From the NCBI GenBank assembly GCA_000004985.1, contig GG738891.1: a DNA stretch of 64,000 bases; one strand, given 5' to 3'. The notes under the pieces were generated by a model. The model did not search any database, was not told where the DNA came from, and saw only the letters and a program-made list of their open reading frames with translations. The stretch is from Naegleria gruberi (taxonomy: Eukaryota). Every line of letters starts with the position of its first letter. Position 1 is the stretch's first letter. This document shows positions 13,713-52,940 of this stretch, one piece after another. The position numbers were made by a program, and so were the translations under genes.

Positions 13713-14635
13713 ATGAGTTCTCTCCCAACAACTTTCCCTACTGAATTTTTACATTCTCACACTCAAGTTAAGAAGAAGGAAGAGGATGTAACTACAAGTT
13801 TGTTCTCAAAGAAAGCCGAAAAGGAAAAGGAAATTGCTACAGTCCAAAGATTGGTTTCCTATGTTAATAATTTTAAAACTCCATCAAAGCAACCATTTAT
13901 TATTGGTGTTTGTGGTGGTAGTGCTTCTGGTAAAACAACTGTCTGTAGAGAAATTGTCAAGAGTTTGTCCGATAAGAGAGTTGTCGTTGTTTCTCAAGAT
14001 AGTTTCTATAGAAATTTGAATGAAGAAGAACGTGAACTTGCCAGAAATAACGTTTATGATTTTGATCATCCAGGTATGTGCTCTTGATTGTCATCATTTT
14101 GAAAATTAATTTTTCAATAATTAGATGCTTTTGATTATGAAGCCTTTGAGGAAACAACCAGAGAATTGAAGGCTGGTAATCCTGTCGATATACCAGTTTA
14201 TGATTTCAAGACTCACTCTAGAACAACTGAAACTGAACCTGTTGAAGGTGCCGATGTCATCATTATTGAAGGTATTCTCATCTTCTTCACCAAGGAAATG
14301 AGAGAATTGATGGATATGAAGATTTTCGTTGATACCGATGCAGATGTTAGATTGGCCAGAAGAAGTATGTAATAATTAGTAATATTAATAGTAATTATAA
14401 TAATAATATTTAAATAGTTAGAAGAGATACAAAGGAAAGAGGACGTGATCTTGAAGGAGTTTTGCTTCAATATGAAAGATTTGTCAAGCCATCATTTGAT
14501 GATTACATTATGCCTACAAAGAAGTATGCTGATATTATCATTCCAAGAGGTGGTGCTAATACTGTTGCTATTGATTTGCTCACCCAACACATTCATCTCA
14601 AGTTGTTGGTTTTGAGTGATAGTGCTTCTAAATAA
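13713..14635 (+). CDS. uridine-cytidine kinase, about 272 aa, 3 exons
   Basis: Exons 13713..14073, 14125..14364 and 14418..14635 with GTATGT donors. The P-loop is [12 protein letters not shown]. The joins give FDHP to DAFDYEAF and DADVRLARR to [25 protein letters not shown]. It is collinear with UCK/udk proteins. Confidence 0.85.
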
Positions 14636-45909: not shown

Positions 45910-48627
45910 TTATTTCTTCTTTTCTGACTTTTCCTCAGAACCAGGAACAAGCTTGTAGGTATGGAGCTTGTCAAAAACGAGAGCAACTCTCTTTTTCAAC
46001 CTTGTTGTATCTGTTATCATTTCAATTTCTTGTTGAAGAGTTTTATCCTTAGGGTTCTTGGTTAAAACAGTGCTCAGCAATTGACCTAATCCGAAATCAA
46101 CTAACTCTTCCCAACCTGGTGATTCATCGTGCACATCAGAAACCCAGTGATTTTGTAAAACTTCCATTTCTTTGTCTTCCAAAGAAAGATTCAACTTCAT
46201 TAATAAATGCATTAATAAAGTTGCACAAGAAAGGTTTTGAGAAAGTTCTTTCAGATTGGTTTGAGTCTTTTCAATCTTCTTTGTTAGAGTCAGAATGTCA
46301 TCATAAGTCTTTTCAAACAAAATGTCCAAGCTATTGATTGAGGTTGGATTCTTATCCTTGTATCTGACCATTAAACGCCTTTGTATTGTTCTGAATTGAG
46401 CTGCCAGTTTGTCCAATTGCTCGTAATAAATTTGCAAACCAAGACGGTTCTTAAAGTGTTCGTCTATAATATCAAAGTATGGGTAGAATGGAAGATTTTC
46501 TGTACTTTCAATCTTAATTGGAGATTTATCATCTGACTGCAGGGCAACATTACAGGCCTTCAATCTTCTTGTTGTTTCTTTGGCGAGTAAATACATAGTT
46601 TCAAAATTGGCAGATTGAATTCTATATCTTCCTGCATTCTTTGATACTAAGAGAGTTGCATCTTTTCCATTAGCATATTGGAATGTTAAGATGTTTTCAC
46701 TCACTAAATTTTCAGTTTCAGTATCTCCCTGTGGTATCAAATCTTCAAACAATGTAGCAATTGGTATTGGGGATTTGTTAGTTTCTAAAGTGATTTTGTG
46801 AGTTGTAACTTTCTTAGCAGGAACAATATCTCCACACAATCCGAAAGGAAGCAAAAAGCTGCAGTTAGATACACGAGGCTGACCTGTTAAAGGATCATGG
46901 TAAATTGCACTAACAGAAGCCTCAAGAGTCTTTGGAGTGCATTCATTACCACCAAATACAGTTATTGGGAGAACATATGGTGTTCTTTGAGACCCAGCAT
47001 CTTGAAAGAGTAAGTTGCCTAATAATTTGAAAATACTTACTAAGGACACTAATGTAAGTGGTTGGTGCTATCACATAAAATGGTTTTTCCACACTCATAT
47101 TAATTGTAATATTTTCTAATTGGCATTCATCACCTGTAAAACCTATGTACAACTTGATGGTCACTCTCTTATTTTCAGTTCCAGTACTGAATGACTCAGG
47201 GTCAACACTAGTTGGTATTTGAGCTCTTATTACTAAACTTTCATTTGCTTCATCCTTTTGATTTCTCTTTGTTTTTCTTATGATTTGTTGAAGACGCTTG
47301 GTTTCTTCTTCCAAACGCTCATAATCAATATCTTTGTTTTCAAGAGTTGGAACAGAGTTCGAAATGGCTCCAGTACCAAGATAATTTAAAGCAAGGTTTC
47401 CTTCTTCATCCAAAGAAACAACCATACCCTTGATTCCATTAAAATTAGCAACTCTAATACTCACAGGGGAAGAATTGCACCCAGCTGCCCAAGCAAGCTT
47501 AGGATCAGAATAGATCATTATTGTCTTGTTGTGAGTTCCCAAAATCAAATTTTGTCTTTCAGCTTTGGATATAATTTAGATTTAATACCTATATGGTCAG
47601 TACTTACTAGGATCTGAGCTTGGTTTGTAGAGATCTACTGCACTAGGGAAATAGTCAAATCTCATTTGTGTCATTAATTCTCCATTTTCCTTGATACTGA
47701 ATAATGTTCGTTCTCCTATAACTAGAATTTCAGATTGACCTGCTGATAAATATTGACTATATCTTCCAACAAGAATGTCATAGACTTCTTCTCCAACATT
47801 TACAGTCCAATTTGCTTTTACCTTTTTTCCGTTTGTATTTTCTTTTTGATTCGATCCGGATGAGGCTGCCAACATTTGATATCTTTCAACATTAGACCAA
47901 TAATAAAACAGCCCTACTTACTTGTAAGCTTCAACTTCCATCGATGAATTAAATGTAACAAAACTGTCCATAGATTTGCTGTATGTTAATGGTCCAGGAA
48001 CTAAACTTGTTGACAAGAATCTTTGGAAAGTAAAGTGGTCTTGCTCAAAGAATGATAATTGGCCATCAAAAGATTGAATACAAATATAATCCTTTCCGAA
48101 AGCACCTCCAAAAGGGCCATAACAAAAGTTGTAAGATAATCTTTGAAGAGCATGTTCATAATACAAATGAAGTGTATAACCTTCCATAGAATTTGGATCT
48201 TGATCATTGCTTGAAACAAAAGACTCGGAGGCTTGTTTTACAATAGTATACACTGCAAACTTTTTAGGCATCAAAACACCAAGAGCATTATCCCTTGAAT
48301 TACTAGAATAAAATTCAAAGCTCAATCCTTGCCTCAACAACTCACAAAAACTTACGGAATAAATTTACCAATTTCAACTTGCAAAATTGGTGCTTCTAAT
48401 TGTTTTTCCAACAATAAATCAGTTGGATAAAAAGTGTTTTTCTGAGGTTTATAAATTCTGAGCATTCCAGATAAACTTCCTACAACAATTTTATCCAAAT
48501 AATTATCTTGACTAGAATTTGGGGGTCTCTCATTGTCTACATTTCCTATACAAAGAGAACCCTTATCAAATTCTTCATTCACTCCGCATTTAGTCGACCA
48601 CCATTCTCGAAGTTTAAAAAGGGACAT
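45910..48627 (-). CDS. BBS9: BBS9/PTHB1, BBSome subunit, about 846 aa, 5 exons
   Basis: Exons 48356..48627, 47922..48302, 47608..47882, 47041..47562 and 45910..47000. The first two use track coordinates, because the printed text is off by one base there. Introns are 53, 39, 45 and 40 nt. The N-terminus MSLFKLREWWST... matches human BBS9 MSLFKARDWWST. Collinear matches include VEIGKF, SFDGQLSFFEQDHFTFQRF, GERTLFSIKENGEL, RYRIQSANFE and FRTIQRRLMVRYKDK. Confidence 0.85.
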
Positions 48628-48821
48628 TTTTTTGTACTTGTATTGAGATTGTATATTTGAAAAAATTGGCGGGAAATTTTGTCTTTATGCCTCAAACCAA
48701 CCTTTTGAAAAGCTTGAAATTTTCATCATCCACAAAATTAATTACAATTCAATCATGTATTCATCATTGCAATTCTTCAATTATATGATAATGATAATTT
48801 ATTGTACAATAGTCACAAAAT

Positions 48822-51800
48822 TTAGTGGGTTTCCTCAGTTTGAGCAGTGGCAGCGCCAGGTTGTGTGGTTGGTTGTTGTGGTTCGACATATTCTTCGAAT
48901 TGGTGAGGTTCGAATGTCTTGACATAGGTAGTACGGATGAGTGGGTAAGGTAAAATTTCTTCAAAGAAACTGATATCCAAATGTTTGGATGTCTTGACAG
49001 TTCTATCAAGGAAAATGCAACAAGTATCGTATTGCTTTTCATAACCCTTAGTACCATTCATGTGGAGAAGAATCATGGCAGCAAACTCGGCGAATCTCTT
49101 GTAATCCTTTTCAAGTTCAGCAATCTTATTGGACTTGACACTGTGAACAGCTTGAATCAATCTGTGGAATGCAGTAATTGACAAGTGGGTATTGTTATAC
49201 CAACCTTCAAGATTGACATCATAGACGCTGTCCTTTTCTTTCCAAGTGGTATTGAGAATAGTGAGAGCAGCAAAGGCCAATGGTAAGACTTCCCAAACTT
49301 GAGATCTATCAACGAGTGGAGACAACTTCAATCTGAGAGGGTGATCAACATCAGAGAAACCACAATCAGTAGCCAAAGCGTCAATTGGAAGGAACTTGCC
49401 ATCACCATAATAATTTCTGGAATATTGTTCGTAAGCACTGTCAATGACATCATAAATAGCTGGGGCATTTCTTCTAACTGAAGATTGAAGAGCAGATTGT
49501 AAACATTGTCTGAATTCCAAAATACCACCAAGTTGAATGAGGAGTGGCATGAGTGTTTCGAGAGGAACAAGAGTTTGTCTGACCTTCTTATCCAAAACAA
49601 ACTTTTCATCATAGAGTTTGCTTTCAATATCCTTGAGGGCATTGTTGGCTTGGGACAAAACTTCTCTGATCTTTTCACTTCTTACATAAATTTCATCCAA
49701 CAAGGATTGATTCAAAGCTCTGAAACCATACGGACCAGTCAAGGTGATGAATGCCTTCAATTCATTGTAATCCAAGTAATTTTCAACATTGTAACTTTGA
49801 ATTGGAGTATTGGCAGTTGAGATGAAGGTTTGTCTGTTTGGATGGAAGAGAGTCTTATACTTTTGTGGATCTGAAACCAAATCAGTGAACCATTGTGAGT
49901 AGATTGAAATCAAGTTGGCTGGTTCTGTTGTTTGAACAACACCGAATGGTGAATCAACATAATTCAAATGCACAAAGTTATCCAAGAATGAGTTCAGAAC
50001 CAATTCTTCAGTATTGATATTGACACATTGTTCAATAATCTTTAAGGATGACATGAAAGAGTGTAATTCACTCAACAATTCTGATGGAGAAATGAACTTT
50101 GGAGTAAGAGCGTCATTCTTCATTTCCTTAGCTGTCAAATCAATAGTAGTGGCAATTCTCTTGATATACTCGGCAATGTATTCTTCGAGAACAGTTCTTA
50201 AGTATTCAACAGGGTAGAAAACATTGTCATACACAACGATTTCGTCGTATCTAGATAATGAGTACAACAATTGAGTGACATTTCTTTCCAAATCACGCAT
50301 ATCATTGATAGAATTATTTTCAAAGTGACTTTCGACACCTGGAACTGCTGGTTCTTCGATATATTGCTTGTTCTTACCATATCTACGGAGGATAGTTTGG
50401 GCAGCAACATCACCACCGATTTGATGAGTTAACATTCTGTAACCATGAGAACTGTTCAACAAATCAAGACCCTTTCTAATTCTGTCGACTAATTGTCCGA
50501 GCATTTGTTCAGCAAATTGAACTGATTGTTGACCAATTCTGTTTCTGAGGGATGGATTAAGTTGAGGGTGAATATTATCAGCATATGTGTTAAGAATTCT
50601 GATAAAAGCAGTCGAATACAAAGGTTGACTCTTTGAACCAATAAGACCTTCAGAGAAAATCTTATCAACATCAGCTCTGTAGAAGTACAATTGCTTGAGG
50701 GATCCCTTTTCGACCAATTCATCATATAAACCATCGACGTGCTTTGAGAATACAACAATCTTGGTCATGGTATTAAACAAGAGTGTCATTTCAGGCAATG
50801 TTTGTTTGAATTGATAACCGGACAGGAATGATTCAACTCTCTTCCAATTCAAACGCATGGCTTCAAAATCTTCACTATTTTGAATATCTGACATGATTGA
50901 TTCCATAATACCAGTAACTTTGGCAAGTTCAAGCTTGGCTTTATGTTCTTCGATCAATTGCCTGGCCTTATTATAATACAATCCACGAATAATCTTGAGA
51001 GAGTATTTTCTAATAACATCTCTGTGTTGCACACAAACGTACATCATTTCATCCATGAGGTAGATCATTTCACTAATCAAAGTTTCCTTAACTTCCTTGA
51101 ACTTCTTTTGAGCAGACTTTGGAACGTATCCATTGTGATGGAAATACCACATGATTTCATTTCTGGCCATTGAAATAGCAGCCAAAACCAAGTTGAATTT
51201 TGGTCCAAGCAAACCAGGTTGATCCTTCATCATGTTGAGCAAGGACTTTAATTGCAATCTGAGATAATTTCTCAATTCCTTGTGATAGTCATGACATTTT
51301 TCAGCAGCAATTTCTGCAAGTTCCTTCAATGATTTCTTTTCCTTTTTCAAATCTCCAAACTTTTTAATCATGACATATTCTTTGAAAGGATCGTGAATGT
51401 TGTAAACTTCATCACCGTAGAGTGGAATGACCAAGTTATTGGCCAAAACTCTTTGTAAGAGAATTTCATAACAACGAAGAGGAGCATCCTTGTCCTTCTT
51501 CTTGCTGACTACAACTGGTGTCATTCTTATTTGTTTTTCTGGGGCACGAGCAAGTGCATCAGGACAACAAGCATAAATAATAGCAACCCATTCTACGATA
51601 TCTTGATAACAATTCAAATACAAGTATGTTTCATCAACAGCAGGGAATGGAATTCTATCTGGTTCAGACAACATTTCCAAAGGTCTTTTAACATTCAAAC
51701 CACCAAAAGTACCTCTTTCAAATGCTGGAATGAGAGCAATGAGTGCTTTACCAATTTGATCTTGAATTGTGAACCATTTTTCTTGGAAACGAGGAATTGG

Positions 51801-52622
51801 ATCAGCAAAATCTTTAAACAATTGCCAAACTCGTTGAATGTTTGGTTCTGCTTGACCGTTCAATTTCAAATAACTCAAGTTTAACAAACAAACAATAAGT
51901 TCCTTGTCCTTAATTCTATTCAGCAACAAGATCAATTTCACATATCCAACCAACATTTGCAAATAATCATAACATGTTAAAAAGTTGACATCTTGTAAAA
52001 AATCAATATTGGCATTTGTAGACATTTCTAATATTGTTTGTTGAGCATGTTCTGTCCATTGTAACAATTCTTTAAATGTTAAATAAATTGGATGTACTTG
52101 ATTAAACAGTGTTGTCATGTTATTCAATGCCCAATCAAAGCCTTGAACCTTTTCCAATTCATCAATGGCAATATGTGGAGCATCTTTTAATAATTTAGCG
52201 AACATTTTCTTCATATCCACAGGAAGTGTGGACTTCATAATATCAGGTTTTAAATCATTATCACCAAGTTCATTCTTTATCGTATATAAACGTTGGAGGA
52301 GAGCCTCAGAATGTTGTTTTAAAACAAAAAGCTAAAATAGTTTTGTTTCGAATATATTTTGCATCAAGTAGTAGTGCAGGATAGCGTTTGATAAATAAAA
52401 ATTGAAGAGAGGAGGGATCATAGTTAGTATAAATTATTATGAATCAGAGAGTGATAAATCCATTCAATCCACACAGTGAAAAATAATTTTCATCATCATC
52501 ATTAGAATAATTAAAACGATTGTCGTTTAATACGAAATAAATTGTTGATCAACAATAGAATAATAATGTTAAAGAGGAGATGATGTGTTTGCTCTGCTTA
52601 CCTTCTCTGCTACCTTTGCCAT
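48822..52622 (-). CDS. NCKAP1: NCKAP1/NAP1/Hem, SCAR-WAVE complex subunit, about 1176 aa, 2 exons. The first exon is absent from the ORF track.
   Basis: A 21-nt exon 1 at 52602..52622 (MAKVAEK, GTAAGC donor), then a 270-nt intron 52332..52601, then exon 2 at 48822..52331. The join reads MAKVAEK LFVLKQHSEALLQRLYTIKNELG, against human [25 protein letters not shown]. Internal [30 protein letters not shown] matches human [30 protein letters not shown]. Confidence 0.85.
52432..52512 (-). ncRNA. candidate intronic box C/D snoRNA inside NCKAP1 intron 1
   Basis: On the minus strand: AATTATT cta ATGATGATGATGA (C box) ... TTTATCACTCT CTGA (D box) ttcat AATAATT. A 7-bp terminal stem flanks a 5' C box and a 3' D box about 60 nt apart. 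The host intron is about 5 times longer than typical introns here. Confidence 0.35.
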
Positions 52623-52815
52623 GGTGTGATTTACAGTGGTGTGTTGGAAATTTTTTTAGATAGAGAAGAAGGATTGACAAGTGATTGAATTGATTGGTCT
52701 GTTTCTGCTACGCGAAGATAAGCAAAACAGAGCACAGTAAAAACATGGCAAAAACTACAGTGAAGAGATCTAGACCTCAATTACTTATTAGCATGGTTGT
52801 TAAGGAATACACATT

Positions 52816-52821: not shown

Positions 52822-52940
52822 AGACTACAGCACCACAGGTTCCCAAGTTGTCTCCAACCTCAGTACTGATGTGGCTCGACGATGCTTAACTTCTCAAATC
52901 GGACGGGATGAGGTGCATGAATCGTGATATGGCCGTAGCC
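52822..52940 (-). rRNA. 5S ribosomal RNA gene, about 119 nt, a single dispersed copy
   Basis: The reverse complement reads GGCTACGGCCATATCACGATTCATGCACCTCATCCCGTCCGATTTGAGAAGTTAAGCATCGTCGAGCCACATCAGTACTGAGGTTGGAGACAACTTGGGAACCTGTGGTGCTGTAGTC. It is collinear with vertebrate 5S, GTCTACGGCCATACC...GGGAGACCGCCTGGGAATACCGGGTGCTGTAGGC. The 5' and 3' ends pair and a T6 run follows. Confidence 0.9.

Follow-up and report, generated by a model that had tools for sequence, protein, structure and literature searches.

The region analysed here, part of a 64,000-nucleotide stretch of Naegleria gruberi NEG-M DNA that we call the window, is the 5' end of the gene NAEGRDRAFT_59016 and is composed of a 7-codon exon, a 270-nt phase-0 GT-AG intron and a large second exon. 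This exon/intron structure matches the GenBank model exactly and is therefore already public; it is an ordinary gene structure, not a new one. The first intron harbours an element that resembles a box C/D snoRNA and that is probably a fortuitous look-alike. The element is most likely no rRNA-methylation guide, and at best it is an unproven orphan candidate. The features of the gene are the following:

52602..52622, minus strand: coding part of exon 1, read directly as ATG GCA AAG GTA GCA GAG AAG (MAKVAEK); the spliced coding sequence corresponds to XP_002673408.1 and the orthologues have a 7-codon exon
52332..52601, minus strand: intron 1, 270 nt, phase 0, GTAAGC...TTTTAG, with borders read in the sequence, a conserved position and an interior without AG
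52596..52601, minus strand: 5' splice site GTAAGC, beginning at 52601; the orthologues have GTAAGT or GTATGT at the matching place
52332..52337, minus strand: 3' splice site TTTTAG, ending at 52332; its AG is the first one downstream of intron position 9
52423..52429, minus strand: TACTAAC, candidate branch site, with the 3' splice site 92 nt further downstream
48822..52331, minus strand: exon 2, remainder of NCKAP1/Nap1 (NAEGRDRAFT_59016), a single open frame of 1169 codons plus stop that matches Pfam PF09735

The conserved residues LFVLKQHSEALLQRLYTIKNEL are located upstream of the first in-frame methionine, and the triplet immediately 5' of exon 2 is TAG; these residues can consequently be translated only via splicing. 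The joining of 52622..52602 to 52331..48822 (minus strand) results in a 1176-residue protein that is 100% identical over 1176 residues to XP_002673408.1 (NAEGRDRAFT_59016; EFC40664.1; UniProt D2VRF9), and the coding structure of the GenBank/JGI model does not differ in any way from our spliced model. The original prediction had announced a missed 21-nt exon: the exon does exist at 52622..52602, but it is lacking only from the plain ORF track and is present in GenBank. The GTAAGC donor, the TTTTAG acceptor and the 270-nt intron were all found exactly where that prediction had placed them. The public name of NAEGRDRAFT_59016 is merely "predicted protein", whereas Pfam names it here as Nckap1 (PF09735, 1107.8 bits against a cut-off of 27), the alignment running from residue 2 to residue 1148 and from position 3 to position 1118 of the 1119 of the profile. 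The likeness to the NCKAP1 family thus lies in a full-length profile match and in the N-terminal signature AEKL..L......LL.RLY.IK recreated by the splice. The claim that the join restores the N-terminus of the NAP1/Hem proteins is borne out by the matching starts of the orthologues and by the profile alignment from residue 2. The Naegleria protein is about 24% identical to the animal members, and its function in Naegleria is predicted from sequence. NCKAP1/Nap1/Hem (GEX-3) is a subunit of the SCAR/WAVE actin-nucleation regulatory complex.

The best protein matches are the NCKAP1 proteins of Naegleria and Willaertia, with 83% identity in N. fowleri and 72% in W. magna. The annotated proteins of N. 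fowleri, N. lovaniensis and W. magna begin with MSKIAEK/MSKVAEK/MAKVAEK followed by L(Y/F)(V/I)L(R/K)QHS, and the PTHB1/BBS9 neighbour found downstream of NCKAP1 is kept in the heterolobosean orthologues. Taken together, the identity, the N-termini and the neighbourhood indicate orthology with the annotated heterolobosean NCKAP1 genes. The 7-codon exon and the phase-0 intron are shared by N. fowleri, N. lovaniensis, a metagenomic Naegleria and Willaertia magna, and the position of intron 1 is shared with five other loci. By its borders, by the frame that its removal restores and by its conserved position and phase, intron 1 is a GT-AG spliceosomal intron. A Logan contig (L045) considered as transcript evidence was rejected, as it proved to be adapter-led genomic DNA and not cDNA. 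That the gene has this structure, matches the public model and is conserved was observed directly.

The unusual length attributed to this intron holds locally, the short introns of the window measuring about 38-53 nt in a heuristic scan, but not at the scale of the genome: the mean intron length of N. gruberi is 203 bp (PMC8296547), and a 270-nt intron is therefore no outlier. The orthologous introns measure 383 nt in N. fowleri, 513 nt in N. lovaniensis, 96 nt in Naegleria sp. L005 and 63 nt in W. magna. The argument from a long intron to a hosted snoRNA is weak in view of this mean and of the 383- and 513-nt orthologous introns, in which no credible C/D unit was found. TACTAAC is the sole TAAC-type motif in the 3' half of intron 1, the stretch from this motif to the acceptor is free of AG, and CTAAT, ATAAC or TTAAC occurs near the 3' ends of the short introns of the window; TACTAAC would thus be the branch site.

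The snoRNA-like string is present in the intron exactly as quoted in the original prediction and reads AATTATT-cta-ATGATGATGATGA...TTTATCACTCT-CTGA-ttcat-AATAATT from 52512 to 52432 on the minus strand. Its parts are the following:

52432..52512, minus strand: candidate box C/D snoRNA-like element, 81 nt, designated on its motifs and their rarity
52506..52512, minus strand: 5' arm, AATTATT, of an inverted repeat of 7 bp composed of A and T only, with 3 nt between it and the first C-box match
52490..52502, minus strand: (ATG)4A run, which a sequence scan reads as three overlapping AUGAUGA C-box matches
52444..52447, minus strand: CTGA, D-box match found by sequence scan, the sole CTGA of intron 1
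52432..52438, minus strand: 3' arm of the same repeat, AATAATT, with 5 nt between it and the D box

The element follows the order of box C/D RNAs, with RUGAUGA towards its 5' end and CUGA towards its 3' end at a spacing within 50-120 nt, the distance from perfect C box to perfect D box being 52-59 nt. When the third AUGAUGA is taken as the C box, the layout becomes compact (13 nt, CUGU, 6 nt, UGAAUGG, 12 nt, CUGA) and an inner 4-bp stem, ATGA/TCAT, adjoins the boxes at 2 and 1 nt. In box C/D snoRNAs, the terminal stem measures 4-6 bp and borders both boxes directly, which allows a kink-turn to form. The internal D' and C' candidates (CUGU, with a 13-nt spacer, and UGAAUGG, with a 12-nt one) are only degenerate forms; D' and C' boxes are often degenerate in eukaryotes. 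Over both strands of the 64-kb window (128 kb scanned), this is the single locus in which RTGATGA is followed after 47-127 nt by CTGA and the two are flanked by a stem of 5 bp or more; for a 7-bp stem, order-2 Markov simulations predict 0.05 loci of this kind per window. Dinucleotide shuffling of the intron produced the arrangement in 0.17% of the copies for stems of 5 bp or more and in 0.005% for stems of 7 bp or more. RTGATGA by itself is found at 91 sites in the window, where order-2 Markov simulations give 31, about a three-fold over-representation, and 82% of the dinucleotide-shuffled copies of the N. gruberi intron contain at least one CTGA. The folding energy is not unusual (z-scores of -0.33 for the intron and -0.85 for the element), and the terminal stem is absent from the minimum-energy structure. 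A mobile or repeated element was also considered and rejected, no second copy being found in the window or in the related loci.

RTGATGA recurs in intron 1 of all four Naegleria species, with a joint dinucleotide-shuffle probability of about 1e-4. Its conservation as a C box was nevertheless rejected: the probability becomes about 0.01 after the three-fold excess across the window is taken into account, and CTGA is not co-conserved. The latter is absent from the orthologous intron of N. fowleri, although 94% of the shuffles of that intron contain one, and from intron 1 of L005. Both boxes are present in the intron of N. lovaniensis, without the stem and without alignable similarity. The introns of N. 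fowleri and N. lovaniensis could not be aligned, and the pairwise cross-species alignments made in search of a conserved snoRNA revealed a merely marginal similarity (p about 0.01-0.015).

The composition of the intron is favourable to a motif of this kind. The interior of intron 1 contains no AG where 7.2 are expected, and the sum over the four species is 0 against 34 expected, while TG and GA are enriched. As the introns are AG-free, their G occurs mainly as TG and GA, thereby enriching TGA and TGATGA strings. Selection presumably keeps the whole intron free of AG, which would avoid premature 3' splice sites, and the resulting composition would favour C-box-like TGATGA. The look-alike would be made up of the (ATG)4 run, in which three overlapping C boxes can be read, of one CTGA and of the 7-bp inverted repeat that contains only A and T.

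A second N. gruberi-type sequence, the metagenomic N. gruberi-like contig L044, is 100% identical to NEG-M in the body of the element from C to D. Its 3' arm is altered by a 3-nt insertion, and a T-to-A change at 52442 breaks the inner stem; a shifted 7-bp pairing, TAATTAT/ATAATTA, can still be formed, so that the 7-bp flanking pairing survives the two mutations in another register. The identity of the body belongs to a larger feature:

52443..52722, minus strand: 280-nt invariant block, zero differences between NEG-M and L044

This block starts at about -100, takes in promoter, 5'UTR and exon 1, and extends to intron position 159. In the non-coding DNA on its flanks, about 17 events were counted over 485 nt and 5 over 111 nt; this flanking DNA differs at about 3-4% of positions, and the Poisson probability of zero differences in the block ranges from 2e-5 to 0.03 according to the neutral rate assumed.

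The affiliation of the element to known snoRNAs was examined by family and by target. At the Rfam gathering thresholds, 5S rRNA alone was matched over the window. A permissive search of the intron returned about a dozen generic C/D families at 9.6-19.5 bits, against thresholds of 40-60. Neither a match to a curated family nor the conservation of both boxes across the related species was observed. For the targets, 37 heterolobosean rDNA contigs were recovered from metagenomes with a Naegleria ITS primer, the contigs of Naegleria proper were picked by means of the reverse primer and the GIR1 ribozyme, and the bounds of 18S, 5.8S and 28S were set by Rfam on contig L021. Complementarity was tested both unconstrained and anchored to the boxes, with shuffled controls. 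The best duplex of the whole element with Naegleria rRNA scored 29, a value reached by 42% of the shuffles. Against the Naegleria 18S, 5.8S and 28S rRNAs, neither D nor D' was preceded, at a distance of 1-2 nt, by an antisense stretch of 10 nt or longer. A positive-control hunt for snoRNAs by rRNA complementarity next to D-like boxes, covering the window and the N. fowleri, N. lovaniensis, W. magna and L005 loci, gave 10 matches against 8.9 expected, and these were in apparent coding sequence. Our literature search found no survey or catalogue of Naegleria snoRNAs and no earlier description of a heterolobosean snoRNA. The negative outcomes of the target, family and conservation tests are direct observations. 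The motif of the original prediction is thus real and its boxes and stem are statistically unusual, but the putative box C/D snoRNA function is unsupported by the rRNA target, Rfam and congener D-box tests.

The element could be read as a canonical rRNA 2'-O-methylation guide that would use TTTATCACTCT upstream of the D box, the complementarity of which had been put forward for verification. The best match of this D guide is an 8-bp pairing adjoining the D box; its partner is GGAGUGAU in 18S, located around 1464-1471 of the L021 SSU. The alternative D' guide pairs over 9 bp, including one G-U, next to the putative D' box with 28S UGAAAAGUA (LSU 373-381). Of the heterolobosean rDNA contigs that include this LSU site, most conserve it. 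The guide pairings of snoRNAs usually measure 10-21 bp, more than either match, and among the shuffled guides anchored against 18S, 5.8S and 28S, 74% (D) and 80% (D') equal or surpass them, so that neither guide rises above chance. On the plasmid-sized Naegleria contigs L006 and L030, spacers included, the D guide pairs over a maximum of 9 contiguous bases, short of the 10 sought across the Naegleria rDNA contigs; pairings of 10-12 bases by the D' guide are confined to A/T-rich, non-conserved parts of some contigs. This function is accordingly very improbable. A better, though still doubtful, proposal is an orphan box C/D snoRNA specific to the N. gruberi lineage and produced from the first intron of a SCAR/WAVE-complex gene, NCKAP1. 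The spliced intron would be debranched and trimmed by exonucleases, the C/D kink-turn, the core proteins and the stem would protect the element, and its target would be an snRNA, a tRNA or an mRNA rather than a mature rRNA, or there would be none. The boxes, their spacing, the stem and the intronic location on the sense strand are as expected of such an RNA, the arrangement is rare by chance, and the sub-threshold Rfam C/D matches all lie on the sense strand, at the element. The body is invariant in the two N. gruberi-type strains, with a stem potential kept after two mutations, and the absence of the element from annotation is uninformative since no Naegleria snoRNA catalogue was found in the literature. 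On the other hand, the rRNA target is not above chance, N. fowleri and L005 lack the D box, the terminal stem lies 3 and 5 nt away from the boxes when the first C box is used, and the inner stem is the one broken in L044. Furthermore, the internal D' lacks GA and the C' is poor, the invariant block runs 190 nt past the element, which makes the invariance not specific to it, and a gap of 2 nt separates the end of the element from the likely branch site downstream, a position that would be awkward for snoRNP assembly.

The invariant block suggests yet another explanation, in which the first 160 nt of the intron, with the element and two upstream palindromes, would constitute a cis-acting element of NCKAP1 and the snoRNA likeness would be incidental. 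It would act either as promoter-proximal regulatory DNA or as an RNA structure that shortens the distance between the 5' splice site and the branch site. Besides the zero differences over the 280-nt block, a perfect 14-nt palindrome, TTGTTGATCAACAA, and a hairpin, AAACGA-CAA-TCGTTT, upstream of the snoRNA-like element are consistent with it, as are GACAAWCGTTT followed by TGATGA, common to N. gruberi and N. fowleri, and the complementary GAUGAU/AUCAUC pairs found in every Naegleria intron 1. It is opposed by the unremarkable folding z-scores of the three long introns (-0.33, +0.93 and -1.49), which also led us to reject a structured "zipper" intron, by the comparison being one of two close strains with a block that takes in the promoter and exon 1 as well, and by the lack of alignable conservation across species; we consider it unlikely. 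With a fortuitous resemblance as the preferred reading, we infer that no stable snoRNP is formed from the element. The rarity of the arrangement, the sense-strand intronic site, the typical snoRNA length, the compact layout, the L044 identity with its surviving 7-bp pairing and the recurrence of RTGATGA in the four Naegleria species all count against this reading, as does the target test having been run without a verified Naegleria snoRNA as positive control. Orphan C/D snoRNAs without rRNA targets are also well known in other eukaryotes, which weighs in the same direction.

The element resembles the intron-encoded C/D snoRNAs of animals, plants and yeast (U14, U18, U24, snR38-type) by its sense-strand location in a spliceosomal intron, by the placement of RUGAUGA and CUGA towards its 5' and 3' ends, by its complementary arms and by a length close to their 60-80 nt. 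Unlike them, it has no above-chance rRNA antisense, no Rfam family and no congener D box, and its stem is not contiguous with the boxes. Its host is a regulator of the cytoskeleton and it abuts the putative branch site, whereas vertebrate intronic snoRNAs have translation-related hosts and lie about 50 nt upstream of the branch site. The orphan C/D snoRNAs, such as the vertebrate SNORD115/116, have C/D boxes and a terminal stem and no rRNA/snRNA complementarity; the element recalls them by its box matches, its putative terminal stem and the lack of above-chance rRNA complementarity. Those RNAs are defined by demonstrated expression and snoRNP association, whereas the present element is a candidate designated on its sequence.

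In conclusion, the gene was merely truncated by a prokaryote-style ORF track, and the exon/intron call adds nothing to the public record. If the element were expressed, it would be the first documented intronic C/D snoRNA in a heterolobosean and would modestly extend snoRNA phylogeny. The absence of AG throughout four otherwise unalignable Naegleria introns, for its part, hints at a long-range choice of the first AG as the 3' splice site in this lineage.

The proposed structure of the NCKAP1 gene is right; it is an ordinary one, which the public annotation already contains. Its parts are as follows.

52622..52602, minus strand: coding part of exon 1, read directly as ATG GCA AAG GTA GCA GAG AAG
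52601..52332, minus strand: intron 1, 270 nt, starting with GTAAGC and ending with TTTTAG
52331..48822, minus strand: exon 2, one frame of 1169 codons to the stop

The original prediction of the 21-nt exon, the GTAAGC donor, the TTTTAG acceptor and the 270-nt intron was exact to the base. Exon 2 is directly preceded by a TAG triplet and its first in-frame Met comes only 31 codons in, so that the conserved residues LFVLKQHSEALLQRLYTIKNEL need a spliced upstream exon. The spliced translation is the same at every residue as the 1176-aa XP_002673408.1 (EFC40664.1, NAEGRDRAFT_59016), and this N. gruberi protein was also found by look-up in the 90% cluster of the window's NCKAP1 ORF. The window accordingly belongs to N. 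gruberi NEG-M. The Pfam Nckap1 profile covers residues 2-1148 at profile positions 3-1118 of 1119 (1107.8 bits) and, since position 3 aligns at residue 2, exon 1 completes the N-terminus of the family. The exon claimed to be missed is thus real, but only a prokaryote-style ORF track had missed it.

Searched against proteins, the spliced product matched NCKAP1 of N. fowleri (83% identity), of a metagenomic (ENA) Naegleria (80%) and of Willaertia magna (72%), followed by more distant heterolobosean and animal NCKAP1/GEX-3 proteins. The annotated N-termini read MSKIAEK-LYVLRQHS in N. fowleri, MSKVAEK-LYVLRQHS in N. lovaniensis and MAKVAEK-LFILKQHS in W. magna, and heterolobosean transcript-like sequences begin MAKFAEK-LFILKEHS. 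A phase-0 intron follows codon 7 in the genomic DNA of every species compared, with these lengths.

N. fowleri (L001/L002): 383 nt
N. lovaniensis (L043): 513 nt
Naegleria sp., metagenomic (L005): 96 nt
W. magna (L003/L004): 63 nt
N. gruberi-like metagenomic strain (L044): 280 nt

The orthologous intron is long in three species without a common sequence, and its length alone is no argument for a hosted RNA. The intron had been described as long against others in the window; this holds against the roughly 13 convincing short introns of 38-53 nt that a heuristic scan finds there, by which local standard 270 nt is long. Set beside the published NEG-M mean of 203 bp (PMC8296547, Table 1), it is no outlier.

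Downstream, PTHB1/BBS9, a multi-exon gene for a BBSome subunit (45910-48700, minus strand), comes after NCKAP1 in all four genomes (N. gruberi, N. fowleri, N. lovaniensis and W. magna). Two contigs per assembly carry the locus in N. fowleri (GCA_008403515.1; L001, L002) and W. magna (GCA_041937235.1; L003, L004), their introns differing by 1 and 2 nt respectively; they are probably haplotigs or assembly duplicates. Upstream, a 5S rRNA gene (52822-52940, minus strand; Rfam 100.3 bits, T-run terminator) has the same orientation as NCKAP1 and lies about 200 nt from the start codon of the latter. The 5S copy in L044 has three substitutions, one in a helix as paired by reading the sequence, and W. 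magna has a tRNA-Gly(GCC) in this place (L004 2666-2736, minus strand). The A-rich TATA-like run tctaaaaaaattt (52648-52660, minus strand), 26-38 nt upstream of the ATG, is probably the NCKAP1 core promoter; if so, the 5'UTR would be very short. NCKAP1 of N. fowleri (L002, about 2870-2900) and of N. lovaniensis (L043, about 2850-2880) is preceded by a comparable motif, TGTCA...TTC...TTTAAAAAA.

The stem arms, C box and D box described in intron 1 are indeed there, in an unusual arrangement.

52512..52432, minus strand: snoRNA-like element, 81 nt, AATTATT cta ATGATGATGATGA AAATTATTTTTCA CTGT GTGGAT TGAATGG ATTTATCACTCT CTGA ttcat AATAATT

Nowhere else on either strand of the window does an RTGATGA precede a CTGA by 47-127 nt within a flanking stem of 5 bp or more; for such a layout with a 7-bp stem, 0.05 loci per window are expected from order-2 Markov simulations. 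Dinucleotide-preserving shuffles of the intron reproduce the arrangement in 0.17% of cases when a stem of 5 bp suffices and in 0.005% when 7 bp are required. Such a motif would thus not easily come about by chance, even if its post-hoc selection is taken into account. If the third AUGAUGA serves as C box, the boxes are adjoined by an inner stem of 4 bp, ATGA/TCAT, and the spacers measure 13 and 12 nt. The 5' part of the intron also contains a perfect 14-nt palindrome, TTGTTGATCAACAA, and the hairpin AAACGA-CAA-TCGTTT (52541-52556 and about 52514-52528, minus strand), and GACAAWCGTTT followed by TGATGA is common to the N. gruberi and N. fowleri introns.

A Naegleria ITS primer, checked in the literature, retrieved 37 rDNA contigs from metagenomes, among which Naegleria proper was picked by the reverse primer and by spacing; SSU, 5.8S and LSU were bounded by Rfam on L021. 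One of these contigs, L030, carries a GIR1 branching ribozyme (14046-14242, minus strand; 202.7 bits), which is typical of Naegleria and belongs to the twin-ribozyme group I intron of its SSU rDNA; L006, L019 and L030 are each about 14 kb, presumably close to the size of the Naegleria rDNA plasmid. Against the rRNA, the best ungapped duplex of the whole element scores 29, a value reached by 42% of shuffled elements. The D guide ATTTATCACTCT, proposed as the rRNA antisense stretch, pairs when box-anchored over at most 8 bp, with 18S GGAGUGAU (74% of shuffled guides do as well), and, on the plasmid-sized L006 and L030 with their spacers, over at most 9 contiguous bases. For the D' guide, the best box-anchored pairing is 9 bp, one of them G-U, with LSU UGAAAAGUA (80% of shuffled guides do as well), and it reaches 10-12 bases solely in non-conserved A/T-rich stretches of some rDNA contigs. 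Positive-control scans for real guides in the window and related loci gave chance-level matches and a literature search found no survey of Naegleria snoRNAs, so that this test rests on general knowledge of guide length. At gathering thresholds only the 5S rRNA passes Rfam in the whole window, and in intron 1 about 12 generic C/D families score 9.6-19.5 bits, under thresholds of 40-60. Folding z-scores are unremarkable (intron -0.33, element -0.85), the terminal stem is missing from the minimum-energy fold, and neither the window nor the related loci hold a second copy.

CTGA is lacking from intron 1 of L005 and from that of N. fowleri, although 94% of the dinucleotide shuffles of the latter contain it; in N. 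lovaniensis a GTGATGA and a CTGA are separated by about 105 nt, without a stem. No alignment is obtained between the introns of N. fowleri and N. lovaniensis, and alignments of the N. gruberi intron are marginal (p about 0.015 with L005, about 0.01 with N. fowleri). RTGATGA is present in all four Naegleria introns, with shuffle probabilities of 0.09, 0.06, 0.20 and 0.14; their product, about 1e-4, becomes about 0.01 after correction for the three-fold excess of this string in the window (91 real against 31 simulated under the order-2 Markov model). A conserved C box is not needed to explain this recurrence, for which intron composition and the (ATG)n-type excess account.

Between L044 and NEG-M, the 3510 nt of exon 2 show 10 changes, all synonymous and at third positions; the non-coding DNA shows about 17 events over 485 nt upstream, and the final 111 nt of intron 1 show 5. 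Between 52722 and 52443 (L044 about 405-684) there is no difference over 280 nt, against about 3-4% in the flanking non-coding DNA. This block runs from the promoter through the 5'UTR and exon 1 to nucleotide 159 of the intron, ending one base past the D box; as it also holds 90 nt of intronic sequence 5' of the element, its invariance is not specific to the latter, and it may represent a constrained promoter-proximal region. The first two changes, at 52442 (T-to-A) and 52438 (insertion of 3 nt), strike the 3' flank of the element and disrupt the inner ATGA/TCAT stem; the outer stem shifts to another 7-bp register, TAATTAT/ATAATTA, a retention that is weak evidence, given the A/T-only sequence.

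An rRNA methylation guide is very improbable, the antisense-target test having failed. That the element is an expressed orphan C/D RNA we regard as possible but rather doubtful: the motif is real and statistically unusual, but it matches no family, its D box is not kept in congeners and its box-stem geometry is imperfect. The claim that intron 1 hosts a snoRNA is thus not borne out, and we lean towards a fortuitous look-alike, possibly lying within a constrained promoter-proximal region.

The composition of the intron indicates how such a look-alike could arise. From the 5' splice-site region to the acceptor, AG is absent from intron 1 of the four Naegleria species (window 52332-52601, minus strand; L002 3022-3404; L043 3022-3534; L005 2812-2907), with observed/expected values of 0/7.2, 0/2.6, 0/11.0 and 0/13.5, that is, 0 against about 34 in sum. 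The other dinucleotides are near expectation, with TG and GA enriched 1.3- to 2.2-fold, and internal AG does occur in other putative introns of the window. In other respects the four introns cannot be aligned. Without AG, most G are part of TGA, so that TGATGA and CTGA strings are favoured, and the C box is itself an (ATG)4 run, of a string class three-fold over-represented in the window; AG-free composition and this run together could have produced the resemblance to a snoRNA. The AG counts suggest selection against premature 3' splice sites along the whole of NCKAP1 intron 1, behind which there would perhaps be a distant branch point and scanning for the first AG.
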